This document shows positions 26,493-63,972 of a stretch of DNA of 64,000 nucleotides, piece by piece. Below the pieces are notes generated by a model, which did not search any database, was not told the origin of the DNA, and worked only from the letters and a program-made list of their open reading frames with translations. This DNA comes from an uncultured Verrucomicrobia subdivision 3 bacterium. GTDB taxonomy: Bacteria > Verrucomicrobiota > Verrucomicrobiia > Limisphaerales > UBA11358. Each line of letters begins with the position of its first letter. Position 1 is the first letter of the stretch. Position numbers and translations under genes: made by a program. The DNA lies in the NCBI GenBank assembly GCA_903872345.1, contig CAIQKM010000174.1:8019-72018 (forward strand), given 5' to 3'.

Positions 26493-27005
26493 TTATGGCA
26501 ACGGCGGACCGAGTTTGACGCGGTAAAAACGTTGCGGCGACGTGGAATTCGTATCTTTCCAGTTGAACGGCAGTACGGGCGAATTGGTGATGAACACGCT
26601 GCTCCATTGCGCCAGGTTGGTGGACATTAGAATCTCGTAATCGGGGCCGCTCTGGCCGCTGACATTGAAACCAACCTGGCCGCCGGCAAACGTCACGCCA
26701 CTGATCCCCGGCGAGGCAAGCGGATTGACCAGCACGGAGAAACTTTGCGTGGCGCTCAGGCTGGGCGTGCCATTGTCGGAAACTTTCAGCGTGAAACTGT
26801 TCGTCGAGTTCGCCTGCGTGACGAGCGGCCGGAAGCTGAACGCGCCGCTGTTCGTGTTCAAGGTCGCGTTGGTTGCGCCGGCCAGCAGCGCAAAAGTCAG
26901 CGTCTGCGGCGGCGAGTCCGTGTCCGTGGCACTGGTGGTGAAGGCGACGGTCTGGCCAACGTTCACCGTGCGATTGGTGATGGCCCCGAGCACGGGCGGC
27001 GTGTT
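26493..27005 (-). repeat. Shared C-terminal module, copy 2
   Basis: See 22876..23388. Long runs of identical nucleotides occur, for example GAATTGGTGATGAACACGCTGCTCCA.TGCGCCAGGTTGGTGGACA.TAGAATCTCGTAATCGGG. Confidence 0.9.
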
Positions 27006-30000
27006 GGACGGTGCCACCATCCAAAGCACCAGGGCGTTCGCGTTGCCCGAGGAGACATCCCCGCCGGAACTGTTTCCAGGCATCTGCTCAATGAGTGTTT
27101 TGGTGGAACCGGTGGCCGTAAATGCGCCCGTCACACAGACGTTGGAACCCATCTGCCAAGTCTGGGAAACATCGCCGGACAGGTTGGGATCCTGCAAATA
27201 CGCCTGGCGCACATTTTCGGGAGAGCGATCATCCAGTCCGAAAAACATCACGATGTAACGCGATCCAGCCGTGAGATTGGTCAGGGTGACGGTCTTGGGA
27301 CCGCCATCGTAGTTAAATTCGTTGAGCACGGCATCGAAGTTGGCATTGCTGGTATTTCCGGAGAAGGAGCCGGTGGCGGTTCCGTTTCCCGTGGCGGTTG
27401 CCACGGAGCCATTGGCCGTGAAATTGATCTGCGTGCCATTCGTCAGCGTTACCGTGTAGGCGGTCCCGCCAAACGACGCCGCGCCAACCAGAACCGATCC
27501 CGAGGGCGGCGACAGCGTCGCGTCAGCAGTGGTGATGGGGGTGGGAACGGACCAAGTGAAATTGGTCGCGGCCGGCGGCGTGAACGGACTGAGAGTGAGG
27601 GCGATGGTCGTCGTGTGGCTGATTAATCCGCTGGTGGCGGTGACGGTCACATTCGATGTGCCGGAGGTGACGGTGTTGGAGGCCGTGAACGTCAGGGTGT
27701 TCGCACCACCGGTAATGGGATTCGCGCCAAACGTGGCGGTAACTCCGCCGGGAAGATTGGTTGCGCTCAATGTATAACAGCCATTCAAACCGTTCAATGC
27801 CGTGATCGTGACCGTGCTCGTGCCGCTTGATCCGCCTTGCACGGTCAGGCTGGTTGGGTTCCTGGCCACGCTGAAGTCCGGCGCAGCCGTATTCCAAGAA
27901 ATGGAATCAACGTAGCAGGTGTTCGTCCACCCGGCACTGGTGTTAAACTGAAGGTTCAGATATGCGAAGGGCGACACGGCGTTCGCCGGCACGGTATAGG
28001 TGAGCGTGTTCCAAGCGTTCGCCGTGAAACTTCCATAATAGGTGCTGGTCCATACCCAGTTGTGATCCTGTATGATGGGCTGGATGCTGGAGATTTTGTG
28101 GCCGCTCGGAATCCAGACATGAAAGGTGATTGTCTGGCCCGGAAGGGCATTCACGCCGCCAAGCCTCAGCATCGCCGAGGCCCCGCTCGTGCTGTTGAAG
28201 TTCACGGCCAGCGACTGTTTGCCCGCATAGTGCTGGACGGTGGAAGTCGCCACTCCGACAATCAGGTTGGTGCCGTCGGCCGCCCAACCCTGCGGGTCGG
28301 TTTCAAAATTAAATTGCGCGGGATCCTGGTTGACGCCGGTGGTCGTTGCATGAGCTTCCGGTGAATAACCCGTGATCCCGGAGCCGTTGACAGCGACCAC
28401 TTGAAAATAATAAGTGGTGCCGCTGTTGAGATTGGTATCGGTATAGGATGTGCCGGTAATGCCGGTGACGACGGGATTGGTGCCCTCGCCGCCGGATTCC
28501 GCCGCCCGGTAGAGATTGTAGCTGGTGGCTCCGCTGCCGGCAGTCCAGGACAAATTAACATTGGTATTGTTACTCAGCGTCGCAACCAGACCCGACGCAG
28601 CATAAGGAGCGCCATTCGGCGGCGGATACGCCACGCCACCGGTCAACACCCTGACCGCGTCCGAATTTTCGACCGCGCCCGTGACATAGCTGAACGGACT
28701 GTCGCCAGTGCTCCAATAAAAGGGATACATTCCGTGAACATGGGCGGAATCAACCAGATACTTGTTCCAATAATAACAGGAAAGACTGTTCCAAGTCGCC
28801 TCCGTTCCGCTGAGGAAATTCTTCCCCGCCGCCTGGAATTCGCCGATCATCACCGGAATCCCCTTGCTGACATACTGGTCTTCCAGTTGTTGAAAGCCCG
28901 CATCCATCGTGCCTTCTTCACCCCAGGTGGCGTTGTTAGTTGGGGCACCGGCATCGGAATAATGGTAAGCCGGCCCCCAGAAGTAGGGAGTGCCCGCGCT
29001 TTGCGTTTGCGTGAAATCGAACGGCGTGTAGTTGTGATATTCCAACATCAGACGGTTGGTAACCGTGTCCGTTGGCAGGGAATTCAACCACGTCGTGTCG
29101 CCGCCGCCTTGCAGCACCAGCCAGCGGTTGGTGTTATTGCCACCCACAGCCCGAACCGCGTTGACGAAAGTCTGGTAATAATACATCAACGTGCTCATCA
29201 CAGCGGGACTGGCTACGTTGGGTTCGTTCGAGGCGGCAAACAGCAAATGGTTGTCGTAACCGGCAAAAGTGGTGGCAATCTGGGTCCAGTAGGCCTTCAC
29301 CTTCGCGTTAATGACGGGATCCACCGTTGTCCCTATGCTGCTTTCCAGCCACCCGTCGTCCCAGTGGTCGTTGATCATGACATACATGCCCGCCGCGATG
29401 GCCGCGTCCACCGTCTGTTTGACCTGCGCCATATAGGAAGAACTGATCTGGTAGTTGGTAACGCCGCCGCTGATGTTGGTGATACCGCCGCCCAGCTCCC
29501 ACCCGCACGGAATGCGCACGGCGTTGAACCCGTTTTGGACGGCCGAGTAGAACAGTGCCGTGTTGGGCGGCCCCCAGTTCAACTCCAGCTCATTTCCAAC
29601 GTTCATCCCGTAGGTCGGATTCGGAAACGGCATGGAAGCGGGGATGTTGGTGGCCGCCGCCGCCAGGCCGAGATCGAACACCGCGTCATACTTGTGGCTG
29701 CCACCGGTGGTGATCGTGCCGCCGCTGATGGGAACAAGCGCCATTTCGCCGCCCGCGTAGGCGTTCGTGGCCACGGCCATCGCCACATAGCCGCCGCCGG
29801 ACGGCAGCCGGCCGAAAGCGTACGCGTAGGTTTTGTTCGTGCCCAACGCCACGTTCAGCCCGCTCCATTTCAGCCAGTCACCGTCCGTGAAACCGGGGTT
29901 CGGCGCGCTGACCGTGAGAAGCAACGTCGCCGTGCTGCCGCTCATCGAGTAAATGCTCAGATAATACGTCGGCGTGGTTGCGGGCGTGCCGTAGCCGCCG

Positions 30001-30338
30001 CCGGAGTTCAATCCCGCCGTCCTGATGGCGACCGACACAAGCCTCGTCGCATTGGTTCCGGTGGTGAAGGTCTGACCCGGGGGCGGACTGTTGTCGGTGT
30101 AATAATTAATCCCGTCCGGCTTGTTCGGGTAGGCAGTGTTGCCGTTGGTCGAGAACTGGTAAATGTCATTCGTTCCGGGCGTTGGCGCGGTGGAGCCGAT
30201 GTCCATCAATGTTTGCGCGTGAACAAAACCAGCCAGCCCGGAGGCCAGGATCGCCAAAACCAAACGCAGCCAGCCGGTGATTTGACGTAAAAGTAATTCA
30301 GGCGCAAAATTCATGTTAGCAATGGGACTCACTGACAT
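26493..30338 (-). CDS. Giant secreted modular GH5 endoglucanase-type enzyme: signal peptide, N-module, GH5, FN3, CBM-like, Ig-like/unknown domains, cadherin-like domain, C-terminal FYRV module
   Basis: GH5 motifs: GMNVGNELE, FNAVRIPCGW, MINDHWD, LLFAASNEPN (acid/base), LEYHNYTPF, PVMIGEFQA (nucleophile). FN3: NLSWTAGSGATSYNLYRA...YYFQVVAVN. Confidence 0.9.
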   Translation of the reverse strand: MSVSPIANMNFAPELLLRQITGWLRLVLAILASGLAGFVHAQTLMDIGSTAPTPGTNDIYQFSTNGNTAYPNKPDGINYYTDNSPPPGQTFTTGTNATRLVSVAIRTAGLNSGGGYGTPATTPTYYLSIYSMSGSTATLLLTVSAPNPGFTDGDWLKWSGLNVALGTNKTYAYAFGRLPSGGGYVAMAVATNAYAGGEMALVPISGGTITTGGSHKYDAVFDLGLAAAATNIPASMPFPNPTYGMNVGNELELNWGPPNTALFYSAVQNGFNAVRIPCGWELGGGITNISGGVTNYQISSSYMAQVKQTVDAAIAAGMYVMINDHWDDGWLESSIGTTVDPVINAKVKAYWTQIATTFAGYDNHLLFAASNEPNVASPAVMSTLMYYYQTFVNAVRAVGGNNTNRWLVLQGGGDTTWLNSLPTDTVTNRLMLEYHNYTPFDFTQTQSAGTPYFWGPAYHYSDAGAPTNNATWGEEGTMDAGFQQLEDQYVSKGIPVMIGEFQAAGKNFLSGTEATWNSLSCYYWNKYLVDSAHVHGMYPFYWSTGDSPFSYVTGAVENSDAVRVLTGGVAYPPPNGAPYAASGLVATLSNNTNVNLSWTAGSGATSYNLYRAAESGGEGTNPVVTGITGTSYTDTNLNSGTTYYFQVVAVNGSGITGYSPEAHATTTGVNQDPAQFNFETDPQGWAADGTNLIVGVATSTVQHYAGKQSLAVNFNSTSGASAMLRLGGVNALPGQTITFHVWIPSGHKISSIQPIIQDHNWVWTSTYYGSFTANAWNTLTYTVPANAVSPFAYLNLQFNTSAGWTNTCYVDSISWNTAAPDFSVARNPTSLTVQGGSSGTSTVTITALNGLNGCYTLSATNLPGGVTATFGANPITGGANTLTFTASNTVTSGTSNVTVTATSGLISHTTTIALTLSPFTPPAATNFTWSVPTPITTADATLSPPSGSVLVGAASFGGTAYTVTLTNGTQINFTANGSVATATGNGTATGSFSGNTSNANFDAVLNEFNYDGGPKTVTLTNLTAGSRYIVMFFGLDDRSPENVRQAYLQDPNLSGDVSQTWQMGSNVCVTGAFTATGSTKTLIEQMPGNSSGGDVSSGNANALVLWMVAPSNTPPVLGAITNRTVNVGQTVAFTTSATDTDSPPQTLTFALLAGATNATLNTNSGAFSFRPLVTQANSTNSFTLKVSDNGTPSLSATQSFSVLVNPLASPGISGVTFAGGQVGFNVSGQSGPDYEILMSTNLAQWSSVFITNSPVLPFNWKDTNSTSPQRFYRVKLGPPLP
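29664..30215 (-). repeat. Shared N-terminal module, copy in the GH5 gene
   Basis: See 25810..26361. Confidence 0.85.
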
Positions 30339-30491
30339 TATCTAATGCAAATCAACAGCGCCGGCAATCGTCAGTTTTAACGACATTCGCCGCAAAGGGT
30401 ATCTGGATAAAAAGCGTTCCGCGTGTCGTAATTATACATGACGTGACAGCCGTCGCCGGGTTAGTATGTTGTCGCACCCCAAAACTGAAAA

Positions 30492-32435
30492 ATGAAACCA
30501 GCCATGCGCCCCCTTTTCGCCTTCGTGACGTTCCTCGCCGCCGCCTCCTGCCTGGCGGCCGGTGCATCCTTCACCGTGGATGCGACCCGCTCCGCCGGGC
30601 CAGTCAGCCCGAAGCTTTACGGCTTGATGACCGAGGAGATCAACCATTCCTACGACGGCGGTCTTTACGCGGAACTCATTCAAAACCGCGCGTTTCTGGA
30701 CGACGCCAAGTCGCCGGCTCACTGGTCCGCGGTGGCGCAGGCAAGTTCCACCGCTGATATTGCGCTGGACCCGTCTAATCCGCTGAATGATAAACTCCCG
30801 GTGAGCCTGAGAGTTTCCGTAACGCAGGCCACAAAGGACCAGCCGGCCGGCGTGGCGAACAGTGGCTACTGGGGAATTCCGGTGCATCCCAAGACGGTGT
30901 ATCACGCCTCACTGTTTGCCCGGGCGGAAGCAAGTTTCACCGGCCCTTTGACAATTTCCATAGTGAGCGAGGATGGCGGTACGGTTTACGCCTCGGAAAA
31001 AATTTCCGGAGTTGTGTCCGAATGGAAAAAATTTGAGGTTACACTCAAGACCGGCAACGTCGTTCCGACCGCCCAAGCGCGGTTCGAAATCACGCTGGAT
31101 CAGCCGGGAACGGTCTGGCTCAATGTCGTTTCGCTGTTTCCGCCCACCTGGAACGACCGCCCGAACGGCCTGCGCAAGGACATCATGCAGTTGCTGGTGG
31201 ACTTGAACCCGAAATTCCTGCGCTTCCCCGGCGGCAATTACGTCGAGGGCAATAAGATTGAAGACCGCTTCCCGTGGCAAAAAACACTGGGTCCTATTGA
31301 AGATCGTCCCGGCCACGCGTGTTGCTGGGGCTATCGCTCCAGCGACGGCATGGGCCTGCTGGAGTTTCTGGAATGGTGCGAGGACATGCAGGCCGAGCCG
31401 GTCCTGGCGGTCTATGCCGGTTATTCGCTTCAGGGCGGCCACCTCAAGGCCGGCGCGGAGCTGGCCCCCATCGTGGAGGAAGCATTAAACGAGATCGAAT
31501 ACGTTACAGGCGACACCAACACCACCTGGGGCGCGCGCCGGGCGAAGGACGGTCATCCCGCGCCGTTTCAACTGAACTGTGTCGAAATCGGCAACGAGGA
31601 TTTTTTTGACCAGTCCAAGACATACGACGCGCGCTATGCGCAAATTAGCGACGCCATCCGGGCCCAATATCCCCGGCTCAAACTGATTTCAACCATCGCC
31701 GGAGCGCAGTTGAACGGCCGCAAGGCTGACATTGTCGATCAGCACGACTATAGCGCCACGGACGAATTTATCAAAAAGTCGCGGAATTACGGGTCGGATT
31801 TCAACCGCCAGGGACCCGAAATTTTCGTCGGCGAATGGGCGGCGCACGAAGACGCTGCGGTCCGGCCCTGGGACGGGGCGGCGCATAAATTGGCGCCCAC
31901 GCCCACGATGAAAGCGGCGATCGGCGACGGCGTGTTCATGGCCGCGTTGGAGCGCAACGCCGACATCATCAAAATGCATTGTTACGCGCCGCTGCTGGTG
32001 AATGTGAATCCCGGCGCGCGTCAGTGGCGGCCGAACCTGATTGGCTACGACGCCCTTACGGCCTACGGCTCGCCCAGCTACTACGCCATCCAGATGTTCA
32101 GCCGGAATCTCGGCGACGAAATCCTGCCGGTCACCTTCGCGAACACTTCCGTGCAAGGCTGCGCCACGCGTAACCGCCGGACGGGCGAGATCATCATCAA
32201 GCTGGTAAACCCGGAGTTGCGACCGGAATCCCTGCCAATTGAAATCAACGGCGTCACCGCGATTGCATCCAAAGCCACGATCATCACGCTGGCGGGAAAT
32301 CCGGAAGACACCAATTCCACCAGCCATCCAAGAAATGTCGTGCCGGTCACCACCACGCTGCGCGACGTGAAACCCGGTTTCACCTATGCGCTTCCGCCCA
32401 CCAGCATTGTGGTCATCAAGCTGCAGGCTCGCTAA
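30492..32435 (+). CDS. Alpha-L-arabinofuranosidase, GH51 (plant/fungal-like architecture with an N-terminal CBM4/9-like domain), secreted
   Basis: GGLYAELIQNRAF, FLRFPGGNYVEGN..RFPWQKTLGPIEDRPGH, VEIGNEDFF. Signal peptide MKPAMRPLFAFVTFLAAASCLAA. Confidence 0.88.
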   Translation: MKPAMRPLFAFVTFLAAASCLAAGASFTVDATRSAGPVSPKLYGLMTEEINHSYDGGLYAELIQNRAFLDDAKSPAHWSAVAQASSTADIALDPSNPLNDKLPVSLRVSVTQATKDQPAGVANSGYWGIPVHPKTVYHASLFARAEASFTGPLTISIVSEDGGTVYASEKISGVVSEWKKFEVTLKTGNVVPTAQARFEITLDQPGTVWLNVVSLFPPTWNDRPNGLRKDIMQLLVDLNPKFLRFPGGNYVEGNKIEDRFPWQKTLGPIEDRPGHACCWGYRSSDGMGLLEFLEWCEDMQAEPVLAVYAGYSLQGGHLKAGAELAPIVEEALNEIEYVTGDTNTTWGARRAKDGHPAPFQLNCVEIGNEDFFDQSKTYDARYAQISDAIRAQYPRLKLISTIAGAQLNGRKADIVDQHDYSATDEFIKKSRNYGSDFNRQGPEIFVGEWAAHEDAAVRPWDGAAHKLAPTPTMKAAIGDGVFMAALERNADIIKMHCYAPLLVNVNPGARQWRPNLIGYDALTAYGSPSYYAIQMFSRNLGDEILPVTFANTSVQGCATRNRRTGEIIIKLVNPELRPESLPIEINGVTAIASKATIITLAGNPEDTNSTSHPRNVVPVTTTLRDVKPGFTYALPPTSIVVIKLQAR

Positions 32436-32537: not shown

Positions 32538-35339
32538 TCATTGCACGGTGATCTTCAACGGCAAATGAATCCGGAGGTCGTCCGACGCCGCGCCAATGAG
32601 AAGCTCATAATCGCCCGGTTCCACCACGTATTGTTTCTTCTGCGTATCCCAGTAGCGGAGCCGTTGAGCCGGAACGGCAATCGCAACGTTCCCTGATTCC
32701 CCGCGACTCAGATGCACGCGGGCAAAGCCGCACAATGCCAGTTGGGGTTGCGCCACCGCCGAGTTGACGTGCCGGTAATAAACCTGCGCGACTTCATCGC
32801 CATCGAGATCGCCCGTGTTCTTCACCGTAAACGTTACGGTGGTCGCGCCATCAGCAGGAATGCTTTTTGACTCCAGCTTGCCATTCTGAAATTTGAAGGT
32901 CGTGTAACTCAGGCCGTGACCAAAGGCAAATTCCGGTTTTCCGCTGAAGTAGCGATACGTGCGGTTGCTCATCGAATAATCAGTGAAGCCCGGTAAGTCC
33001 GTCGTCGAGCCGTAAAAAGTGAGCGGCAGTCGTCCACTGGGATTCACCCCGCCGAACAAAATTTCACCCACGGCGCGCCCGCCTTGTTCGCCTGGATACC
33101 AAGCCTGCAGAATCGCCGGCAAATGTTCCGCTTCCCATGGCATTGCCATCGGACTGCCGCTGCAATTCACCAGAATCAAGGGCTTGCCCGTGCCCGCAAG
33201 CGTTTTGAGCAAATCCGTCTGCACGGTCGGCAGTTCGATCTTCGTCCGGTCACCGCCTTCAAAACCGTCAAAGGCGTTGTCACGGCCCATTTCCTCGCCT
33301 TCGAGCCGCGCGGTGATGCCGCCCGCGAAAATCACCACGTCGGCGGCTTTGGCCATGGCCACGGCGTCGTCAAGGGCCGCCTGGCCGGGCTTGTTCGATC
33401 CGTCCGCGCGCAGCGCCCAAGGACAGCCCGTGGCATGGGTCACTTCAATGCCCGGCCCGGCCAGTTGCCGGATGCCGTCCAAAATCGTCACCGGACGGGC
33501 GGCATGGCCGTTGTAATTCCCCTCCAGCATCCACGCCACATCGGCATTCGGGCCGATCACGGCGATGCGTTTGACCTTTGCCCGGTCCAGCGGCAGCACG
33601 CCGTCATTCTTCAACAGCACGATGGCCTCTTCGGCGACTTTCAGCGCCAGCGTCTCGTGTGCGGGCGTATCGTTCTGCTTGATGTCAATTTTGGAAAACG
33701 GACATTTATCCGCCGGATCAAACAGGCCCAGCCGAAAACGGGTTTCCAGCGTGTAAGCCAGCGCCCGGTCAATTTCCGGTTCCGTAATCAACCCTTTTTG
33801 CACCGCGCGCACCAGCGGGTTGTAATCGCCGCCGCAACACAGGTTGCAGCCGGCTTTCACCGCGGCGGCGGCCGCTTCTTCCGAGGTGCTCACATAATGA
33901 TGCTCGTCCCGGCCCCAAATGTTGTGAATCGCGGCGCAATCCGAAACGATGTAGCCGTCAAAACCCCATTGCTTCCGCAAAATATCGTTGAGCAAAAAGG
34001 GACTGGCGCAACAAGGCACGCCGTAAAGTGAATTGTAAGCCCCCATCACGCCGCCGACGTGTCCTTCGCGCACCGCCATTTCGAACTGCGGCAGGTAAGT
34101 CTCATACAAATCGCGTTCCGGCGGCGCGGCGTCAAAACGATGACGGTCCGGTTCCGGCCCGCTGTGAACCGCAAAATGTTTCGCACAGGCCATTGCCAGC
34201 GTGTAATCCGGATTGTCGCCCTGCAACCCCTTGATAAACGCCACGCCCAGCGTGCCGGTCAGAAACGGATCCTCGCCATAGGTTTCCTGGCCGCGGCCCC
34301 AGCGCGGGTCGCGAAAAATATTGATGTTCGGCGACCAGAACGTCAGCCCGCCAAACCATTTGGCATCCCCGTTGTGGGAGGCCGCGTAATCGTTGAACTT
34401 CGCCCGGCCTTCCATGCCAATGACGCCGGCTTCCTGTTGCAGCAACGCCGGATCCCACGTGGCCGCCGCGCCGATGGCTTGCGGAAACACCGTCGCGTCG
34501 CCGTTGTTCGCCACGCCGTGCAACGCCTCGCTCCAGTAATTGAAGGCCGGCAACCCCAGCCGGGAAATGCCCGGCGCGCCGTTTTGCAACTGCGCGACTT
34601 TTTCCGCCAGCGACATCCGGCGGATCAAATCATTCGCGCGCGCCGCCAGCGGCTGCGCCGGATCACGCCAGATCGGCGGCTCGCTGATTTCCGGGATGTG
34701 CGTGGCCACGGCGGAATAGGCGTCCGCCATTTCGGCGGCAGTGAATGAGACCACCGGCGTGCCCGCCGCGTTTTTTACTTCCAACGTATTGAACTTCGCG
34801 TTGTCCTTGCCCGTCGAAAACGAAACCGTCAGCCGCCCCTTGAGCGAATCATCCTCATGCGCGACCACGCCCGTGATGTAACAGACCTTCCGCGCGGCAC
34901 CGGCGGCAGCGATGATGTCAAAATCCTTCGCCAGAACGGTGTCGCCGGCGGTCACACTGAAGACCCGTTGCCCCGGACCGGTTGACCAGGTTTCCGCCTC
35001 GCCAATGGAGATCGTGTATTTGCCCGCCGGCAAATGCGCGATGGTGACCGTGAAATGTTCCCCGTAAATCTCCTCGTGAAACGCCGCCGCGTTGTTGTCC
35101 GCGCCCTCAATGCGCATGGATGCATCATATTTGCTGTGCGCAAACTCGCCGCTGATGCCGACCTCCTGACCGCAGGCGGCGCAGGTTTCATCCGCCGCCC
35201 GCGCGGCGGGAACCGAAAGGCACAGGCCGGCGGCGGACAGCAGGAGCAACATGGCGCGGGTGGTGATTCGGGCAAACGCCGAACCGGCAGGTCGGGTGAA
35301 TAATTTCGCACTCATTTTTAATTCTCTATTTTGAATCAT
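32538..35339 (-). CDS. Malectin-domain / GH3 beta-glucosidase or beta-xylosidase fusion, secreted
   Basis: GH3 motifs: LAEKVAQL, FNYWSEALHG, FWSPNINIFRDPRWGRGQETYGEDP, CAKHFAVHSG, GYIVSDCAAI. The N-terminal ~200 aa are malectin-like (GQRVFSVTAGDTVLAKDFDIIAAAG...FNTLEVKN). An alternative start is ATG 35315; Met1 at 35339 overlaps the upstream gene by 14 nt. Confidence 0.9.
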   Translation of the reverse strand: MIQNRELKMSAKLFTRPAGSAFARITTRAMLLLLSAAGLCLSVPAARAADETCAACGQEVGISGEFAHSKYDASMRIEGADNNAAAFHEEIYGEHFTVTIAHLPAGKYTISIGEAETWSTGPGQRVFSVTAGDTVLAKDFDIIAAAGAARKVCYITGVVAHEDDSLKGRLTVSFSTGKDNAKFNTLEVKNAAGTPVVSFTAAEMADAYSAVATHIPEISEPPIWRDPAQPLAARANDLIRRMSLAEKVAQLQNGAPGISRLGLPAFNYWSEALHGVANNGDATVFPQAIGAAATWDPALLQQEAGVIGMEGRAKFNDYAASHNGDAKWFGGLTFWSPNINIFRDPRWGRGQETYGEDPFLTGTLGVAFIKGLQGDNPDYTLAMACAKHFAVHSGPEPDRHRFDAAPPERDLYETYLPQFEMAVREGHVGGVMGAYNSLYGVPCCASPFLLNDILRKQWGFDGYIVSDCAAIHNIWGRDEHHYVSTSEEAAAAAVKAGCNLCCGGDYNPLVRAVQKGLITEPEIDRALAYTLETRFRLGLFDPADKCPFSKIDIKQNDTPAHETLALKVAEEAIVLLKNDGVLPLDRAKVKRIAVIGPNADVAWMLEGNYNGHAARPVTILDGIRQLAGPGIEVTHATGCPWALRADGSNKPGQAALDDAVAMAKAADVVIFAGGITARLEGEEMGRDNAFDGFEGGDRTKIELPTVQTDLLKTLAGTGKPLILVNCSGSPMAMPWEAEHLPAILQAWYPGEQGGRAVGEILFGGVNPSGRLPLTFYGSTTDLPGFTDYSMSNRTYRYFSGKPEFAFGHGLSYTTFKFQNGKLESKSIPADGATTVTFTVKNTGDLDGDEVAQVYYRHVNSAVAQPQLALCGFARVHLSRGESGNVAIAVPAQRLRYWDTQKKQYVVEPGDYELLIGAASDDLRIHLPLKITVQ

Positions 35340-39444: not shown

Positions 39445-39559
39445 CGCCATGGTTGCCTAATAAAACCGGGATCTCGATGCTCAAACGATAGCCGGTATCC
39501 GCCAAAAAGATTGTCGTCATTTCTCACGATAAAATCCCCCAAGCAGGACTTCACTCCGC

Positions 39560-49200: not shown

Positions 49201-49584
49201 GTCCATCAATTTTGAATCCGACGTACCCAAAGTCGAATAAGCACCGCCGGAATAGGATCCGGCCGCATCCCACTGCATTTGCAATCCCGAATCGGCCCCC
49301 GTGTAATCAATGATGCCGGAAGTGACGCTGCCATACCGGTCAAAGTTGTTCCAGTTGGTGGTGGCAAAACCGGGAGCGCCGGCCGTTTCAACCGTGGCGC
49401 CGGTCGGATCCATTACCAGGTTAATCAAAGAAGTGGACTGTGAGTTGTCAATGCCCCCGTTGCCGCTGCCAGTGAAGTTCACACTGACGGATTGCTGGGC
49501 GTGCAAGGCGACGGCGCCGCCAATCAGCGCCAAAGTCTTTGCGAAAAGATTTTTTATAGTTTTCATATTGTTGAATGGGTTCAT
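46204..49584 (-). CDS. Giant secreted protein: unknown N-domain, Ig-like modules, LamG domain, unknown beta-rich domain, C-terminal FYRV module
   Basis: Signal peptide (MNPFNN)[23 protein letters not shown]. Ig-like modules: YQWQTDGG...[10 protein letters not shown] and NQWQVNTGG...[10 protein letters not shown]. LamG hallmark [23 protein letters not shown]-terminus [19 protein letters not shown]...QVFYRVVEP. Confidence 0.9.
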
Positions 49585-49837
49585 GCGAGAAGACCGGCGG
49601 TTTCCAAGGTTGGGGTTGGTAACGTTGATTTAGTCATAGTTTGCTGGTTGGGTACTGAACGAATCCGACGCTTGCGCAAAAACCTGCCGTCCGGCCAAAA
49701 TCCCGGTTTCACCATGACAAAGCGGCTCACAGAGCAGAGGGCTTCGCCTGACAGTGGGGGTTTGCATGGTCACACTATTCACCAGTCCACTCCCTGCGTC
49801 ATGTCGTCAAAAATAACGATACTGTAAAATAGCCGGC

Positions 49838-52903: not shown

Positions 52904-52999
52904 GTCAAAACCCCGCCGGCCTCATCCATTTTAACGACATGACAAATCCGCCGGCCTTGGCAAAATTTAACAACTGTCACCTCCAAATATTTATACGTC

Positions 53000-57304: not shown

Positions 57305-57381
57305 GTAGCAGCCGACGTAAGGAGGCTCTGAATAGACAAGCGCTTCCAAAGATATTTGAGCCTCCTTACGTCGGCTGCTAC
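57305..57381. repeat. REPIN-like doublet, copy 3 (with a compensatory substitution)
   Basis: GTAGCAGCCGACGTAAGGAGGCTC (57305-57328), a 29-nt spacer, then GAGCCTCCTTACGTCGGCTGCTAC (57358-57381). It starts 4 nt after stop 57300. Confidence 0.85.
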
Positions 57382-57489
57382 GGCGGAAGCGTTTTTCGAC
57401 GGGCTGCCGCCCCCCCTCCAACTCGTTTGTTTTCATGACAAGACAAACGCGATCAAATTGCCCATCCTGTGCCCATTCAAAGACCAATC

Positions 57490-59961
57490 ATGAGACACCT
57501 CCGCCTGACCTTTGTCCTCGCCCTGCTGCTGGGCGCTTTTTCCTCGTTTGCAGAAACCGATTCGCCGCGCGAAAAATTGCTGATGGATTCCGGCTGGCGC
57601 TTTGCCTTCGGCCACGCGACCGACCCGTCAAAAGATTTTGATCCCGCGCCCGCGAGCGAGATGTTCAATTACCTCACCAAGGCCGGCAACGCCCGGGGCG
57701 CGGCCGCGGCGCGTTTCGATGACAGCGACTGGCGCAAACTGGATCTCCCCCACGACTGGGCCGTGGAAGCCCCCTTCGACTGGCGCGGCAGCGGCAGTCA
57801 CGGCTACAAGGCCATCGGCAAAAACTTTCCCGAACGCAGCGTCGGCTGGTATCGCAAGTCCTTCGCCATTCCCGCCACCGACCTGGGCCGCCGCATCACC
57901 GTGGATTTCGACGGCACCTTCCGCGATTCCCAGGTCTGGGTCAACGGCTTCTACCTCGGCCGCGAAGCCAGCGGCTACCTGCCCTTCAGCTACGACATCA
58001 GCGATTATCTCAATTATGGCGGCAACAACACCATCGCCGTGCGCGTGGATGCCACCCTCGAAGAAGGCTGGTTTTACGAGGGCGCGGGCATCTACCGCCA
58101 CGTCTGGCTGACCAAAACCGCGCCGCTGCACGTTGCCCGGTACGGAACGTTTGTCACGACCGAGGTCAAAAAGAATTCCGCCGCCGTGACCGCGCGCGTC
58201 ACCGTCAACAACGACCAGCCGACGAATGCCTTGTTTGAAATACGACAGGCCATTTTGGACGCGGAGGGCCAAACCCTCGCCACCGGCAAGCTCCGGAAAC
58301 TGTCCCTCGCGCCCGGCGAATCCCGCGAGTTTTCCTCCGTCCTCGGCGTGTCGCACCCGAAACTCTGGTCCTGCGAGACACCCACGCTGCACCAACTCGT
58401 CACCACCGTCTGCCAGGGAGATAAGATTGTTGACCGTTACGAAACGCCGTTCGGCATCCGCACCCTGCGCTGGGACGCGAACAGCGGGTTTTATCTGAAC
58501 GGCCGGCGCGTGCAGTTGAAGGGAACCTGCGACCATCAAGACCACGCCGGCATCGGCGCGGCCCTGCCCGACGGCGTGAATGAATTCCGGGTGGAACAGT
58601 TGAAGAAGATGGGATCGAACGCCATCCGCACCAGCCACAACGCCCCCACCCCCGAACTGCTCGATATCTGCGACCGCCTCGGCATGTTGGTCATGGATGA
58701 AAACCGCGAATACGGCATCAACCCGCAGCAACTCGACGGGCTCAAGCGGCTGATGTTGCGTGACCGCAATCATCCCAGCGTCATCATCTGGTCGCTCGGC
58801 AACGAGGAATGGAGCATCGAAGGCGCGGACAAAGGCACGCGCATCACGCAGACGATGCAGACTTTCGCACAGCGGCTCGACCCCACCCGCCGCTTTACCG
58901 CCGCCGACAGCGGCGGCTGGGGCGGGGGCACTTCCGTGAGCATTGATGTGATGGGCTTCAATTACTACTCCCATGGCAACACTGATCAATACCACCGCCA
59001 GTTTCCCAACAAACCTTCCGTCGCCACCGAGGACGGCAGCACATTTTCCACGCGCGGCGTTTACGTCCAGGACCGCGAACACCAGCACCTGACCGCCTAC
59101 GACGTGAACAAGGCGGACTGGAGCCTGCTGGCGGAGGAATCCTGGCCCTACTATGCCGCGCGGCCCTACATCGCCGGGCAATTCCAGTGGACGGGCTTTG
59201 ATTATCGCGGCGAGGAAACGCCCTTTGGCTGGCCCGCCATCAGCTCGCAATTCGGCATCCTCGACGTCTGCGGCTTCCCCAAGGACAATTTTTACTATTA
59301 TCAGGCGTGGTGGTCGGATCATCCCGTGCTGCACCTGCTGCCGCACTGGAACTGGCCAGGCAAGGAAGGCCAGGACATTGACGTCTGGGCGCATGGCAAC
59401 TGCGAGGAGGTCGAACTCTTCCTCAACGGCGTGAGCCAAGGCCGGAAAAACATGCCCAAAAACTCGCACCTGGAATGGAAGGTGAAATATGCGCCCGGCG
59501 CCCTGCTCGCCCGGGGTTACACCGGTGGCAAAGAAATCATCACGGACAAAGTCGAAACCACCGGCGCGCCCCAGGCCGTCCAACTCGCCCCCAACCACGC
59601 CGCGCTCAAAGCCGACGGCGAGGATGTCTCCGTCATCACCGTTTCCGTCACCGACGCCCAGGGCCGCCCCGTGCCGGATGCCGCGAACAACGTCCATTTT
59701 GAACTGGCCGGGCCGGGCAAAATCCTCGGCGTCGGCAACGGTGACCCGTCCTCGCACGAACCCGACGTTTTCCTGCCCACCGGAGATCGCGCACCGGAGT
59801 GGCAGCGCGGCCTGTTCAACGGCCTCGCGCAGATCATCATTCAATCCTGCAAGGAACCGGGCGAAATCAAACTCACCGCACACGCCGACGGCCTGACACC
59901 CGTCACCCTGGTCATCCCATCGCAACCCGCCACCCCGCGCCCGGCGGTCGCCGGCAGATAA
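57490..59961 (+). CDS. GH2 glycoside hydrolase (beta-galactosidase family), secreted
   Basis: The same GH2 hallmarks as 42214..45087 are present: DWRKLDLPHDWAVE, VDFDGTFRDSQVWVNG, NAIRTSHNAP, WSLGNE, GQFQWTGFDYRGE. The start chosen is ATG 57490 (MRHLRLTFVLALLLGAFSSFA). Confidence 0.9.
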   Translation: MRHLRLTFVLALLLGAFSSFAETDSPREKLLMDSGWRFAFGHATDPSKDFDPAPASEMFNYLTKAGNARGAAAARFDDSDWRKLDLPHDWAVEAPFDWRGSGSHGYKAIGKNFPERSVGWYRKSFAIPATDLGRRITVDFDGTFRDSQVWVNGFYLGREASGYLPFSYDISDYLNYGGNNTIAVRVDATLEEGWFYEGAGIYRHVWLTKTAPLHVARYGTFVTTEVKKNSAAVTARVTVNNDQPTNALFEIRQAILDAEGQTLATGKLRKLSLAPGESREFSSVLGVSHPKLWSCETPTLHQLVTTVCQGDKIVDRYETPFGIRTLRWDANSGFYLNGRRVQLKGTCDHQDHAGIGAALPDGVNEFRVEQLKKMGSNAIRTSHNAPTPELLDICDRLGMLVMDENREYGINPQQLDGLKRLMLRDRNHPSVIIWSLGNEEWSIEGADKGTRITQTMQTFAQRLDPTRRFTAADSGGWGGGTSVSIDVMGFNYYSHGNTDQYHRQFPNKPSVATEDGSTFSTRGVYVQDREHQHLTAYDVNKADWSLLAEESWPYYAARPYIAGQFQWTGFDYRGEETPFGWPAISSQFGILDVCGFPKDNFYYYQAWWSDHPVLHLLPHWNWPGKEGQDIDVWAHGNCEEVELFLNGVSQGRKNMPKNSHLEWKVKYAPGALLARGYTGGKEIITDKVETTGAPQAVQLAPNHAALKADGEDVSVITVSVTDAQGRPVPDAANNVHFELAGPGKILGVGNGDPSSHEPDVFLPTGDRAPEWQRGLFNGLAQIIIQSCKEPGEIKLTAHADGLTPVTLVIPSQPATPRPAVAGR

Positions 59962-60222: not shown

Positions 60223-60453
60223 ATGAAGAAATCGTTCGCACTCTTAATCGCGACCGGCGCAATGTTTCCGGGCGGCGGTTGCACCACCAACCATGGCCAG
60301 GCTGGCACCAAATGGGAGTATCAGGAGGCGGCGAACAGCGCGGAAGCAAATCAGATGGCAGACAAGGGATGGATTGTTGCGGGTTTCAACAAATATACCG
60401 ACGCCACCGGCCAACCCCAGACTGATTACACGATGAAGCGGCCAAAGCAGTGA
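60223..60453 (+). CDS. Small lipoprotein (76 aa), DUF4177-like
   Basis: MKKSFALLIATGAMFPGGGC carries a lipobox. KWEYQ...ADKGWIVAGF resembles the DUF4177 pattern from memory. This is a weak call. Confidence 0.55.
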   Translation: MKKSFALLIATGAMFPGGGCTTNHGQAGTKWEYQEAANSAEANQMADKGWIVAGFNKYTDATGQPQTDYTMKRPKQ

Positions 60454-60568: not shown

Positions 60569-60728
60569 AACGTGGTTAGCAACGGGCGCGTGGAACAATC
60601 CGGCGCGGCTGAACGTTCGGACATTGCTGCTCCTGCGTTAAATCAAACCAAATCAAGCCTGTCGTCATTATTTTTGACGACAAGCTCGCCACCGCTTTAT
60701 AGACTAGCCTTCTCTCAAATCAACCACT

Positions 60729-62342
60729 ATGACAAGCCGCTCATTTCCCATCCACAGCTCCCGCAAATCGCTCGCCATTTGCTGCTTCCTCCTGGCCGCC
60801 GCCGTTACAGCGGTTGCCGGCGCCGCCACGAACGACCTGCCGGCACGGATCATTTCCGCCGACCTCCAGCAGCCCAACGGCCCGCTCAACACCATGTTCA
60901 AATTCTGCGTCGGGGCCGGTCGTGCAAACGAGGGCCTGCGCGCCGACTGGCAGCGCCAACTGACCGTCGCCCATCAGGAATGCGGCTTCCAATACATCCG
61001 CATGCACGGTTTGTTCACCGACGACATGGGCGTCTATCGCGATTACACCGGCAAGCCCGAATACAACTGGCAGTACATTGACGAGCTTTACGATTTTCTT
61101 CACCGCATCGGCATGAAGCCGTTTGTGGAACTCGGCTTCATGCCCCAAGGCCTCGCCAGCGGTTCCAAGACCATCTTTTGGTGGAGGGGCAACGTGACGC
61201 CGCCCCGCGATATGAACAAGTGGGCGGATTTCATCCGCGCCTTCGTCCTCCACGAACGGGAACGCTACGGCGACGCCGAGGTGCGCACCTGGTTTTTCGA
61301 GGTCTGGAACGAACCCAACCTCACCGACGGCTTCTGGGCCGGCACACAGCAGCAGTATTTTGACCTCTACGCCGCGACCGCGCGCGCCATCAAGAGCGTT
61401 TCTCCGGATTACAAGGTGGGCGGCCCCGGCACCGCCGGCTGCGGCTGGATAAAAGAATTCCTTCATTTTTGCGACACCAACCATGCGCCCGTGGATTTCG
61501 TATCCACGCACACCTACGGCGTGGAAAGCGGTTATCTGGACGAGACCGCCACCCACGGCACGGCCCTTTCCCGGAACCCCAACTCCATCTTCGGCGAAGT
61601 GAAACAGGTGCGGCAGCAGATTAGCCATTCGGCCACTCCCAACCTGGAACTCCACTTCACCGAATGGAGCAGTTCCTACACGCCCGCCGATCCCTTTCAC
61701 GACAGCTATCACAGCGCCGCCTACATACTGGACAAGCTCAAAAAATGCGGCGACGCCCCCAATTCCATGTCCTACTGGACCTTCACGGACATCTTCGAGG
61801 AATCCGGTCCGCGCTGGGAGGCCTTTCACGGCGGCTTCGGCCTCATGAATTATCAGGACATCAAAAAGCCGTCGTTTTATGCGTATCAATTCCTGAACCG
61901 GCTCGGCCCCACCGAATTAAAAAGCAGCGATCCGTCGTCGTGGATTTGCACCGACAAAGACGGCGGGGTGCAGGCGTTGGTTTGGGACTTCACCAACACC
62001 TTCCCGGAAAAGGACATGATCAATCAGGTCTTCTACAAACGCGATTTGCCGGCGACGGCCAAAAACCGGGTCACGCTGGATTTGTCCCACCTGCCCAAGG
62101 GCAAATACACCGTCGAGACTTACAAAGTGGGCTATCGTGTGAACGACGCCTATGCCACCTATCACGATATCGGCTCCCCGGCGCAGCTCACCGTGGCGCA
62201 GGTCGCTGAAATCAAATCCAAGAACAGCGGCGCGCCGTTGGAAACCAAGACCGTGAAAATCGGCCGCGATGGAAAGTTCGCGCAGCAGTTCGACATCCGT
62301 GACAACGACGCCGTGCTGGTCACGCTCAAGCCCGTACGGTAA
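60729..62342 (+). CDS. GH39 beta-xylosidase-type glycoside hydrolase, secreted
   Basis: YIRMHGLF, FFEVWNEPNL (acid/base), KVGGPG, VDFVSTHTY, HFTEW (nucleophile region) and SYWTFTDIFEE..FHGGFGL are collinear with recalled Thermoanaerobacterium XynB. Confidence 0.9.
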   Translation: MTSRSFPIHSSRKSLAICCFLLAAAVTAVAGAATNDLPARIISADLQQPNGPLNTMFKFCVGAGRANEGLRADWQRQLTVAHQECGFQYIRMHGLFTDDMGVYRDYTGKPEYNWQYIDELYDFLHRIGMKPFVELGFMPQGLASGSKTIFWWRGNVTPPRDMNKWADFIRAFVLHERERYGDAEVRTWFFEVWNEPNLTDGFWAGTQQQYFDLYAATARAIKSVSPDYKVGGPGTAGCGWIKEFLHFCDTNHAPVDFVSTHTYGVESGYLDETATHGTALSRNPNSIFGEVKQVRQQISHSATPNLELHFTEWSSSYTPADPFHDSYHSAAYILDKLKKCGDAPNSMSYWTFTDIFEESGPRWEAFHGGFGLMNYQDIKKPSFYAYQFLNRLGPTELKSSDPSSWICTDKDGGVQALVWDFTNTFPEKDMINQVFYKRDLPATAKNRVTLDLSHLPKGKYTVETYKVGYRVNDAYATYHDIGSPAQLTVAQVAEIKSKNSGAPLETKTVKIGRDGKFAQQFDIRDNDAVLVTLKPVR

Positions 62343-62433
62343 TAATGTCTCAGATCGTTCCCGCGATTGCAGGTCGCTGGGGTGTTCGGGTACTGACTGC
62401 CAAATCAGGCTGGAAAACAAATTCAATGTTCCT

Positions 62434-63972
62434 ATGAACAAGCTGACGCATCAACTCGCCGCGATCGCCGCCTTTGTCATACTAGGTGTGGCGGCTAATC
62501 TCCCCGCTCAGACCGCGCCGCCCGCGCCCGTCCGCGTGGCGGGCGGATTGGTTCAGGGAACCGCTGAAGACGGATTGGCGGTCTATCGCGGGATCCCGTT
62601 TGCCACGCCACCGGTCGGCGACCTGCGCTGGCGCGCCCCGCAACCCGCCGCGAAATGGGACGGCGTCCGATCCGCAACGCAATTTGGCCCCATGCCCGTT
62701 CAAGGCGGGAATGGCTCCGAAGATTGCCTGTATCTGAATGTCTGGACGCCCGCCAAATCCGCGTCCGACCACCTGCCCGTGCTTGTCTGGATTTATGGCG
62801 GCGGATTTGGCGCGGGCTCGACGTCCGACCCAAACTACAGCGGCGAGCAACTGGCCAAGAAAGGCGTCGTGTTCGTCAGCATCGCCTACCGGGTCGGCCA
62901 GCTCGGTTTTCTGGCGCATCCAGAATTGAGCGCCGGAACCACCAACCACGTTTCCGGCAACTACGGTTTGCTCGACCAGCTTGCCGGCCTGGAGTGGGTG
63001 CAAAAGAACATCGCCGCATTTGGTGGCAATCCACACCAGGTGACGATTTTCGGCGAATCCGCCGGCGCCATTTCGGTCAGCATGTTGTGCGCATCGCCGC
63101 TGGCCAAAGGGCTGTTCCACGGGGCCATTTCGCAAAGCGGCGGCTCCTTCGGCCCTTCCCGCCCCACCACGCTGCCCGGCGAGAACATGCGACCGCTTGC
63201 CGCTGCGGAACAAGCCGGCGTGGCTTACGCCCGGGGTGCGACCATCGCCGAACTCCGCAAACTTACCCCCGACAAGCTTCCGCCCGGCCCCGGCTTTGGC
63301 TTATCCTGGCCGATCATTGATGGCTGGGTGATTCCCGGCGACCAATACCAGCTTTACGCCGCCGGCAAATATAACGACACGCCCGTCCTCATCGGTTACA
63401 ACTCCGACGAAGGTGCCAGCTTCTGGCCGCCGAAAACCCCGGAAGCCTACCTCATCAGCGTCCATAACCGTTACGGCCAGTTCGCCGATGATTTGATCAA
63501 AGCCTATCCGGTCGGCACCAACACGGTTCCTAAAACTGCGCGCGACCTGATGCGCGATACCGCCTTTGGCTGGCAAACGTGGAGTTGGGCGCGACTCCAG
63601 TCGCGTACCGGCAAGTCCAAGGTCTTCTACTATTATTTCGACCAACACGCCGAAAACCAGGCCGGCTCGTGGCACGGCATGGACGTCTCCTATGTCTTCC
63701 ACCATCTCAACCCAAACAACCCGCAGACCACCAAGGCCGATTTGGCGATTTCAGACGCCATGTCCACATACTGGGTAAACTTCGCCAAACACGGTGATCC
63801 GAATGACAGCGACCTGCCCGCATGGCCGGCCTACAGCGACCGCCAGCCGCAAGTGATGTATTTCAGTCAAACGCCCCACCTCGGCCCCGTGCCCGGCGGC
63901 GACTCGCTCAAAGTCCTGGATGATTACTTCGCCTGGCGGCGGACGCCCGCAGGCGCAGCGTGGGCGAAATAG
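62434..63972 (+). CDS. Type-B carboxylesterase/lipase family esterase, secreted
   Basis: YRGIPFATPPVGDLRWRAP, EDCLYLNVW, VWIYGGGF and the nucleophile elbow FGESAGA. The start chosen is ATG 62434 (MNKLTHQLAAIAAFVILG); the track ORF begins inside GH39. Confidence 0.9.
   Translation: MNKLTHQLAAIAAFVILGVAANLPAQTAPPAPVRVAGGLVQGTAEDGLAVYRGIPFATPPVGDLRWRAPQPAAKWDGVRSATQFGPMPVQGGNGSEDCLYLNVWTPAKSASDHLPVLVWIYGGGFGAGSTSDPNYSGEQLAKKGVVFVSIAYRVGQLGFLAHPELSAGTTNHVSGNYGLLDQLAGLEWVQKNIAAFGGNPHQVTIFGESAGAISVSMLCASPLAKGLFHGAISQSGGSFGPSRPTTLPGENMRPLAAAEQAGVAYARGATIAELRKLTPDKLPPGPGFGLSWPIIDGWVIPGDQYQLYAAGKYNDTPVLIGYNSDEGASFWPPKTPEAYLISVHNRYGQFADDLIKAYPVGTNTVPKTARDLMRDTAFGWQTWSWARLQSRTGKSKVFYYYFDQHAENQAGSWHGMDVSYVFHHLNPNNPQTTKADLAISDAMSTYWVNFAKHGDPNDSDLPAWPAYSDRQPQVMYFSQTPHLGPVPGGDSLKVLDDYFAWRRTPAGAAWAK

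Follow-up and report, generated by a model that had tools for sequence, protein, structure and literature searches.

Which polysaccharide is addressed by a dense group of glycoside hydrolase (GH) genes in an uncultured Verrucomicrobia subdivision 3 bacterium, and how is their expression controlled? The DNA considered here is a stretch of 64,000 nucleotides from contig CAIQKM010000174.1 (here C174, positions 8019-72018) of assembly GCA_903872345.1, referred to in its entirety as the window; the source genome (G000) has 6.54 Mb and is 94.6% complete, and other G and L codes denote genomes and loci of relatives. How xyloglucan is used is understood in detail for Bacteroidota, Cellvibrio and Xanthomonas, and an earlier note, made from the letters of the window, had read these genes as a region lacking SusC/D that breaks down a fucosylated and arabinosylated hemicellulose of the xyloglucan type. 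The genes most likely constitute a single regulated glycan-utilisation locus, reaching from approximately position 22059 to about 3 kb beyond the window end, of which xyloglucan, decorated forms included, is probably the main target. On balance, the evidence favours a conserved and co-regulated core of the xyloglucan type at its centre.

Open reading frames (ORFs) of the window were taken from a six-frame listing and assigned to families by Pfam and NCBIfam scans. Every carbohydrate-active enzyme (CAZyme) family named in the earlier note was recovered by the Pfam scan (Table 1), including a third GH29 gene in a neighbouring cluster. Its statement that signal peptides occur nearly throughout agreed with the hydrophobic leaders seen by eye in the printed N-termini of GH5, GH51, GH3a, GH29a, GH29b, GH2a, GH31, a 634-aa protein, GH2b, GH39, GH12 and GH3b and, at an internal start, of the β-helix protein and the esterase. 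Absent from that note were a two-component system, the GH-like gene encoding the 634-aa protein, operator-like palindromes, and a GH12 gene with a second GH3 gene (GH3b) directly beyond the window end, which extend the cluster ~3 kb past it.

Predicted backbone cleavage and a core shared with relatives

The backbone of the presumed substrate would be cut by a giant GH5 protein of 1281 amino acids (aa), in which a signal peptide and a shared N-terminal module are followed by a GH5_4-like catalytic domain (residues ~243-547), an fn3 domain, a PKD-CBM44-like region (628-815), an Ig-like region and a C-terminal module ending in FYRV. Its PDB matches were led by CjGH5D (5oyc, 5.6e-62), an exo-xyloglucanase (4w8a, 2e-44) and the BoGH5A-type 3zmr (1.9e-39), with the xyloglucanase 2jep (3e-30) further down; an entry titled ‘GH5-4 broad specificity endoglucanase’ was also among the top matches. 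In the alignment with CjGH5D the NEP motif (acid/base) and the GEF motif (nucleophile) coincide, and this catalytic Glu pair, together with closest similarity to GH5_4 members, places the protein, as judged from its sequence, probably in GH5 subfamily 4. Carbohydrate-binding modules (CBM) of family 44 bind xyloglucan, and residues 628-815 of the giant match PDB entry 2c26 (3.4e-17). This entry is the PKD-CBM44 of CtCel9D-Cel44A from C. thermocellum (PMC2954218), while CjGH5D and BoGH5A are both described as GH5_4 enzymes, CjGH5D strictly requiring branched xyloglucan (PMC5816542). The best PDB matches of the GH12 protein were xyloglucan-specific GH12 enzymes, although weak (1.4e-12). GH5 and GH12 together are therefore the candidates for the endo-xyloglucanase activity expected of a xyloglucan gene cluster.

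Window proteins were mapped by tblastn onto 20 stretches from 11 relatives. Among named records, the close relatives are Verrucomicrobiia and ‘subdivision 3’ metagenome-assembled genomes (MAGs). With the complete GH5 query, matches at E <=1e-30 were obtained in 22 genomes of the 41 searched, G000 among them, mostly via N- and C-terminal modules common to dozens of other giants; its catalytic part matched in five of the 41 (G000, G024, G001, G014 and G004), and GH31 orthologues (E <=1e-100) were present in 13. G024 (80-93% identical) retains a near-identical order in two runs, β-helix-GH29a-GH3a-GH51-GH5 followed by the response regulator (RR), and histidine kinase (HK)-GH31-634aa-GH2b. Elsewhere the orders were RR-GH5(491 aa)-HK-GH31 (G004), RR-giant-HK-GH31 (G016), the same order followed by the 634-aa homologue and GH3b (G022), GH3b-GH12-GH5 (G014), GH31-GH3b-634aa-GH2b-GH39 (G012), 634aa-GH31-HK-RR (G001) and GH2a-GH3-GH31 (G023). 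These gene orders define a conserved core made up of the two-component system and the genes for GH5, GH31, the 634-aa protein, GH3b and GH2b, which GH12 and GH39 often accompany. Downstream of GH12 and GH3b, locus L007 (6226-9402, 9604-12186, 12038-14675) contains genes for a 1058-aa rhamnogalacturonase-A-like β-helix protein and for an 860-aa protein resembling Melibiase_2, as well as two genes of Peptidase_C39_2-like type.

A two-component system and a candidate operator

The HK and RR genes bracket the minus-strand block of the locus. Since NCBIfam alignments of the regulator begin only at residue 69, its translation probably starts in fact at the ATG near 22715. The association of these genes with the enzymes is retained in relatives: the RR gene adjoins GH5 or the kinase in G004, G022, G016, G024 and G001, and the kinase is divergent from GH31 in eight relatives' loci.

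On reading the intergenic regions, an inverted repeat of 7-4-7 architecture with the consensus GTCGTYA-N4-TRACGAC was spotted, for which we know of no matching published site, although no search aimed at one was made. The half-site GTCGT[ACT]A[AT][AT] has 13 matches in the window, seven of them intergenic, in DNA that is only ~5% intergenic. A strict pattern, T[GA]TCGT-N8-ACGA[TC]A, identified three unique sites in the 6.54 Mb genome, all within the window, where three mononucleotide shuffles used as a control yielded 0, 2 and 2 strand-hits. When one mismatch to the consensus was permitted, three of ten genome-wide sites fell in the window, and with up to two mismatches seven of 110. The distance from site to start codon is 64-70 nt for GH31, GH51 and GH39.

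Relatives keep the palindrome in position: it precedes GH5 in both G024 and G014, lies near the RR gene in G022, in L042 and, as the counterpart of GTCGTTAGTTTTCACGAT, in G024, and is found in G024 also between the β-helix gene and GH29a, equivalent to GTCGTCATTTCTCACGAT; G012 carries GTCGTCAAAAATAACGAT 41 nt before its GH39. The element in the 96-bp spacer between the kinase and GH31 has a weaker form, TC[GA]T-N2-ATTTT[GA]A[CT]GAC, which is unique in the genome, was recovered in all eight relatives' loci having the HK-GH31 adjacency, and also precedes GH31 in G012. A HisKA_3 kinase, a receiver/GerE regulator and inverted repeats upstream of the locus genes together identify a NarL/LuxR-type system with a candidate operator, and the NarL-type regulator would be the protein that binds the palindrome. 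This pair of operator and two-component system is a defined, directly testable item and, with the GH-like family described below, among the most useful new elements of the locus.

Table 1 Features of the locus and its surroundings, in window coordinates.
Feature	Position	Strand	Evidence or location
Second prepilin-type N_methyl protein	5028-5690	-	Pfam
GH29 of neighbouring cluster	7529-9169	-	Pfam
LamG/Ig/PKD giant	17853-21959		Pfam
NarL/LuxR-type RR	22059-22904	-	Pfam Response_reg 5e-24, GerE 3e-19
Palindrome GTCGTTAGTTTTCACGAT	22743-22760		~27 nt upstream of likely RR start; strict pattern
PKD1190, 1190-aa PKD/Ig giant secreted protein	22876-26448	-	Pfam K319L-like_PKD, Ig; ends FYRV
Palindrome-like GTCGTCAGTTCTTATGAC	26465-26482		between GH5 and PKD1190, upstream of PKD1190; 2 mismatches to consensus
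GH5 giant endo-glucanase	26493-30338	-	Pfam Cellulase 1.4e-43, fn3
Palindrome ATCGTCAGTTTTAACGAC	30367-30384		divergent GH5/GH51 spacer, 38 nt from GH5 start; <=2 mismatches
Second, weaker site	30424		67 nt before GH51
GH51 α-L-arabinofuranosidase, N-terminal CBM4_9-like domain	30492-32435	+	Pfam ASD1_dom 1.7e-32, Alpha-L-AF_C 1.7e-31
GH3a, N-terminal malectin domain, nearest β-xylosidases	32538-35339	-	Pfam; NCBIfam Xyl3A 834 bits (cut-off 1250); PDB 7zb3 β-xylosidase 5e-122
GH29a, two F5/8 type C domains, GH29-B (α-1,3/4-fucosidase) type	35326-37710	-	Pfam; PDB 8ayr 1.6e-116, 3mo4 α-1,3/4-fucosidase 1e-98, 3eyp 4e-80
GH29b, Fucosidase_C domain, GH29-A type	37725-39347	-	Pfam 2.6e-79; PDB 7snk 4e-76, 7ljj exo-α-L-galactosidase 2e-74, 4ni3 (FgFCO1) 6e-52
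Palindrome GTCGTCATTTCTCACGAT	39513-39530		upstream of GH29b; strict pattern
Right-handed β-helix protein, C-terminal PDZ, distantly GH141-like	39560-42370	-	Pfam Beta_helix, PDZ_2; PDB 9rx2 8e-27, 5mqp BT_1002 3.5e-16
GH2a β-galactosidase	42214-45087	-	Pfam; NCBIfam GalA 1046.9 bits (cut-off 900)
Prepilin-type N-methylation protein, pseudopilin-like	45254-46201	-	Pfam N_methyl 1.3e-7; NCBIfam IV_pilin_GFxxxE; directly downstream of LamG giant
LamG1126, 1126-aa LamG/Ig giant secreted protein	46204-49584	-	Pfam Laminin_G_3 1e-13, I-set, Ig_3; ends FYRV
Palindrome GTCGTCAAAAATAACGAT	49803-49820		upstream of LamG1126-pilin-GH2a string; strict pattern, 1 mismatch to consensus
Sensor HK: Reg_prop propeller repeats, Y_Y_Y, HisKA_3, HATPase_c	49838-52903	-	Pfam Reg_prop 3.4e-34, Y_Y_Y 1.3e-12
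Element CTCATCCATTTTAACGAC	52921-52938		HK/GH31 spacer, 70 nt before GH31 start
GH31, YicI/5f7c-like, candidate α-xylosidase	53000-55393	+	Pfam 7.5e-85
Secreted GH-like protein, 634 aa, uncharacterised family	55396-57300	+	starts 3 nt past GH31 stop; ESM Atlas, predicted fold
GH2b β-galactosidase	57469-59961	+	NCBIfam GalA 1140.7 bits (cut-off 900)
Palindrome GTCATTATTTTTGACGAC within longer TGTCGTCATTATTTTTGACGACA	60664-60681		64-68 nt before GH39 start; <=2 mismatches
GH39, β-xylosidase type	60729-62342	+	Pfam 1.2e-111; PDB 8i0j GH39 β-xylosidase 2e-146
Type-B carboxylesterase	62269-63972	+	Pfam COesterase 1.1e-108

The distribution of the repeat also bears on the view that these genes are chance neighbours in a CAZyme-rich genome and form no functional unit. 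Such a view could appeal to the many CAZyme genes of this genome, of which at least five of family GH95 lie elsewhere, and to giants with the same end modules scattered over many contigs, but the core is syntenic across relatives and a near locus-unique palindrome is kept in position, making a chance assembly very improbable.

An extracytoplasmic function (ECF)-type promoter as explanation of the motif was rejected, as no matching -10 element at the right spacing was seen by eye. The sites at C135:14974 and C24:2168, which have no CAZyme neighbours, and C126:34457, inside a 3428-aa ORF, are probably chance or unrelated occurrences, and the seventh window site found with up to two mismatches (63361), within the esterase gene, is probably due to chance. 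On contig C43 (locus L114), a perfect palindrome, GTCGTCAGAATTAACGAC, is located at 316, 388 nt before the gene for a 773-aa fn3/CBM44-like protein (704-3025). Over part of its length this protein shares 60% identity with the CBM44-like segment of the giant GH5 protein, and the ESM Atlas gives a weak lead from it towards clusters resembling GH44 or arabinofuranosidases. A CE4 polysaccharide deacetylase gene comes next (3027-4139), and these genes may be an additional part of the regulon.

The exo-enzymes and the likely substrate

In favour of xyloglucan, the locus combines a GH5 protein near xyloglucanases with an adjoining GH12, a YicI-like GH31 and two GH2 enzymes that both exceed the GalA cut-off, and its core is syntenic in relatives and marked by the palindrome. 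The general xyloglucan-type assignment of the earlier note was upheld to this extent, but a number of observations weigh against it. The first concern GH31, which had been called a YicI-like α-xylosidase. Its YicI likeness is clear: the best PDB matches were 5f7c (3e-136) and YicI (1e-108), it is the sole YicI-like gene of the genome, and the equivalents of YicI D416, D482, K414 and R466, which include the catalytic Asp residues, are kept. Residues C307 and F308 have a role in the xylosidase specificity of YicI, and here GH31 has T/G, with a gap at the W380 region, like the 5f7c chain, an entry titled only ‘Alpha-glucosidase’ in the PDB. As it also reached just 501 bits on the NCBIfam α-xylosidase model (cut-off 606), α-xylosidase activity is suggested by context only; the literature on 5f7c/BT_0339 yielded nothing relevant.

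Other points against xyloglucan come from the endo-enzyme, the side-chain enzymes and the habitat. Promiscuous glucanases also occur within GH5_4 (PMC5816542). GH3a and GH39 best match β-xylosidases, while GH3b has an arabinopyranosidase model as its best NCBIfam match, far below the cut-off. Both GH3 proteins in fact stay below every equivalog cut-off, GH3b being nearest to arabinopyranosidase and β-glucosidase models, and consequently no clear β-glucosidase is shown. GH29a is of the α-1,3/4 type by its PDB matches, and the GH95 genes of the genome lie outside the locus. The locus encodes no transporter, and of the loci examined just two, those of G000 and G024, have the block GH51-GH3a-GH29-β-helix-GH2a between GH5 and the kinase. 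Finally, 13 studies have lake-water or freshwater metagenomes in which the HK-GH31-634aa stretch is present, a habitat in which the supply of xyloglucan is uncertain; four of the runs, all from a single study, may be where this DNA came from. The runs listed for the stretch included none of RNA, and the organism is known from metagenomes alone.

The fucosidases deserve separate consideration, as the earlier note had specified a fucosylated substrate. GH29-B enzymes resemble AfcB and BT_2192 and carry C-terminal F5/8 type C modules; with its matches to 3mo4 and 3eyp and its two F5_F8_type_C domains, GH29a fits GH29-B on sequence grounds. GH29b alone shows kinship to a xyloglucan-active GH29 enzyme, through its weaker match to 4ni3. 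That enzyme, FgFCO1 of Fusarium, is described as xyloglucan-active (PMC7711723). This kinship speaks for fucosylation, but the linkage type of GH29a and the GH95 genes elsewhere speak against it, so that the case is weak overall, and the fucosylated and arabinosylated refinement was not supported by anything tested.

The β-helix ORF is over-extended at its start, with a signal-peptide-like segment near residue 145, and its match to 5mqp (BT_1002) is partial (residues 163-284), the better match, 9rx2, being an unnamed parallel β-helix protein. At its C-terminus this distantly GH141-like protein carries a PDZ domain of the DegP type (residues ~846-930), a fusion that to our knowledge is unusual for a carbohydrate-active enzyme. 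For the esterase, the true start is likely an internal Met preceding the signal peptide. The unusually long spacer of 767 bp between GH2b and GH39 contains a small ORF (60223-60453) for a 76-aa lipoprotein-like product (MKKSFALLIATGAMFPGGGC...).

A sugar-acid-type catabolic cluster at 10374-17646 is bounded by two AraC regulators. Its genes encode a dehydratase of the enolase superfamily, closest to L-rhamnonate dehydratase (302 bits against a cut-off of 393), together with a GFO/IDH/MocA oxidoreductase, a solute-binding protein and a TIM-barrel protein resembling xylose isomerase. The cluster may process deoxy-sugars freed by the fucosidases.

The restricted distribution of the block raises the possibility of a composite island, in which only the RR, the kinase, GH5, GH31, the 634-aa protein, GH3b, GH2b and GH12 would be devoted to xyloglucan, and the block (GH51, GH3a, GH29a/b, β-helix protein and GH2a), GH39 and the esterase would serve further glycans of plants, for instance arabinoxylan oligosaccharides, arabinogalactan proteins or α-1,3/4-fucosylated glycans. 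The β-xylosidase affinities of GH3a and GH39, the GH29-B type of GH29a and the distant likeness of the β-helix protein to BT_1002, a rhamnogalacturonan II (RG-II) fucosidase, are in line with this arrangement. So are the absence of GH29b from the block in G024 and three loci (L038, L039 and L041) in which the 634-aa gene, GH2a and GH3a stand beside a different kinase (50% identical). However, palindromes of the same type precede GH51, GH29b, the LamG-pilin-GH2a string and GH39, which argues for one regulon, and GH39 is also part of a xyloglucan utilisation locus (XyGUL) of Flavobacterium. Each of these linkages occurs in one xyloglucan side chain or another. We consider such a composite possible but clearly less likely than a locus directed as a whole at xyloglucan.

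Alternatively, the locus could target a non-plant or unbranched polymer of the β-glucan type, or a fucose-rich one, as might occur in lakes (an algal or cyanobacterial exopolysaccharide, or mixed-linkage glucan), in which case the GH5_4 enzyme would be an endoglucanase of broad action and GH31 an α-glucosidase. The freshwater occurrence of the stretch, the promiscuous members of GH5_4 and a GH31 without the YicI specificity residues would suit this proposal, as would the general abundance of fucosidases in freshwater Verrucomicrobia (PMC5615132). Nevertheless, the closest solved relatives of GH5 and GH12 are xyloglucan-specific, a CBM44-like module is present, and the gene set is close to known xyloglucan loci, which renders a lake polymer of this kind unlikely, and xyloglucan is retained as the favoured target.

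Coupled to GH31 in the core is the 634-aa protein, which had no match in Pfam, NCBIfam or PDB sequence searches. ESM Atlas clusters containing it carry three families of Pfam 38.1 that are missing from the Pfam release scanned here, PF28584 (‘probable glycosyl hydrolase, catalytic’), PF27250 and PF28585. A literature search for SSO3021, PF28584 and PF27250 gave no paper. The family is widespread, with at least 7492 homologues among 8000 candidates scored and 1380 cluster representatives at E <=0.001. A confident AlphaFold2 model (pLDDT 92.3, pTM 0.91), for which 56 sequences were aligned, resembles, over the whole chain, GH164, GH42 and GH151 in Foldseek (E ~1e-21, TM ~0.6, ~10% identity; 6t5o 2e-21) and GH42 in VIA-align (Z ~20). 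The TIM-barrel, α/β and β-sandwich architecture is thus common to these families and the 634-aa protein despite only ~10% sequence identity, and the barrel by itself resembles those of Cwp19 (Z 23.1, rmsd 3.4, 276 aligned) and PgaB of GH153 (Z 19.6). Clan GH-A enzymes use a Glu/Glu catalytic pair, unlike the set that is invariant in the family alignment (D141, K193, E223, R225 and D260).

A homologue directly adjoins GH31 in six relatives' loci. Of the 24 loci with a homologue of 64% identity or more, 17 also carry one or more homologues of locus genes and seven carry GH31; at 62% identity or less, GH31 was found in none of 56 loci and any locus-gene homologue in seven. The link to GH31, GH2, GH39 and the kinase is accordingly a property of close Verrucomicrobiia relatives, and it gives this family a concrete substrate context for assays. 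Distant genomic context was rejected as a clue to function, being mostly housekeeping genes (Pfam, 78 flanking proteins from 22 loci). On four Acidobacteriota-type MAG contigs (L074, L075, L085 and L112), three tandem genes for lactonase-like seven-bladed propellers lie upstream of the homologue, a setting quite unlike the verrucomicrobial one. The 634-aa gene is also among those followed at their 3' side by long hairpins of a repetitive extragenic palindrome (REP)-like element with the core GCCGACGT[AG]AGGAGGCT, for which 92 core matches (both strands counted) were found on 48 contigs genome-wide; within the window it occurs at 794-860, 45123, 57311-57376 and 63985-64000. The last bases of the window give short multi-contig matches because of this element.

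Surface proteins, uptake and comparison with known xyloglucan systems

The description of the region as lacking SusC/D was borne out: SusD_RagB had no match in the 94.6% complete genome, none of the window ORFs scanned gave a SusC/SusD-type Pfam match, and the four TonB_dep_Rec matches of the genome, three of them above cut-off, all lie off contig C174. The adjacent SusC-like and SusD-like pair that marks a polysaccharide utilisation locus (PUL) or XyGUL of the Bacteroidota type is therefore absent. The earlier note had further assigned the place of SusC/D to giant surface enzymes and pseudopilins, and this was not supported in respect of uptake. The N- and C-terminal modules of PKD1190 and the GH5 protein are 77-80% identical, and LamG1126, a candidate surface glycan binder, has homologues next to GH31 in G011 (40% identical) and in L073 (32% identical). 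A pilin-like gene follows only one of the four window giants. All four giants (17853-21959, 22876-26448, GH5 and 46204-49584) end in FYR[VL], and the end modules that the GH5 protein has in common with PKD1190 are also present in dozens of giant ORFs throughout the genus, on many contigs.

The family assignments, the gene orders and the distribution of the motif are direct observations; for the substrate, the location of the enzymes and the protein that acts on the palindrome, we infer the following course. The secreted GH5_4-type giant, with its CBM44-like and FYRV modules, would cut the β-1,4-glucan backbone outside the cell, and the small GH12 likewise, after which oligosaccharides would enter the periplasm by some route other than SusC/D. 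There, exo-enzymes bearing signal peptides would strip side chains and backbone: GH29 enzymes and the β-helix protein would release fucose or L-galactose, the two GH2 enzymes galactose, GH51 arabinose, GH39 and GH3a β-linked xylose, esterases acetyl groups, GH31 α-linked xylose and GH3b glucose, with the 634-aa enzyme coupled to GH31. The periplasmic propeller/Y_Y_Y domain of the kinase would sense an oligosaccharide, and the NarL-type regulator would then bind the palindromes before GH31 and the kinase, GH5 and GH51, PKD1190, its own gene, GH29b, the LamG-pilin-GH2a string and GH39. In such a scheme the modular endo-xyloglucanase could serve as a model for polymer handling at the cell surface in verrucomicrobia without SusC/D. 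A bolder version, in which a self-contained xyloglucan regulon operates independently of TonB and SusCD, is switched by the kinase and NarL-type regulator through an undescribed GTCGTYA-N4-TRACGAC operator, and includes in the 634-aa protein the founder of a new GH family with a xyloglucan-oligosaccharide step in this lineage, is put forward only tentatively and is rather doubtful as a whole.

No xyloglucan locus described in Verrucomicrobiota was found in the literature listings searched, and the word ‘xyloglucan’ is absent from a genome paper on freshwater Verrucomicrobia (PMC5615132). Loci of other phyla provide the comparison. The XyGUL of Flavobacterium comprises GH5_4, GH95, GH3, GH39, GH97, GH31, GH2, CE20 and XusCD, its GH5_4 being close to CjGH5D (bioRxiv 10.1101/2024.06.03.597110). 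With this ‘hybrid’ XyGUL and that of Bacteroides ovatus the present locus shares a GH5_4 near CjGH5D, GH31, GH2, GH3, GH39, an esterase and a regulator with a periplasmic sensor. In contrast to both, it has no SusC/D (XusCD) pair, carries GH29 instead of GH95, couples an uncharacterised GH-like gene to GH31, employs a 1281-aa modular giant as endo-enzyme, and is equipped with a classical kinase and separate NarL-type regulator in place of a hybrid two-component protein.

The region had also been presented as a functional analogue of the Bacteroides loci, and the lack of SusC/D agrees with this, but it is less unusual than was implied, as SusC/D-less clusters are known from Cellvibrio and Thermotoga. 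Cellvibrio japonicus has GH5_4 enzymes and a cluster of GH31, GH35 and GH95 with a TonB-dependent transporter (PMC5816542); no such transporter gene is found here, and regulation differs. In Thermotoga maritima, GH74, GH29, GH31 and GH42 lie side by side (PMC12144081), the GH29 and the GH42-fold enzyme having parallels here in the GH29 genes and in the 634-aa protein with its GH42-like architecture, whereas the exo-enzymes have no signal peptides in Thermotoga and all have them here, as judged by eye, and regulation again differs. Finally, the kinase has in common with the hybrid two-component sensors of Bacteroides the Reg_prop and Y_Y_Y domains preceding the kinase core, but it differs from them in its HisKA_3 dimerisation domain, in having neither a fused receiver nor an AraC output, and in working with a separate regulator of the GerE/LuxR type.

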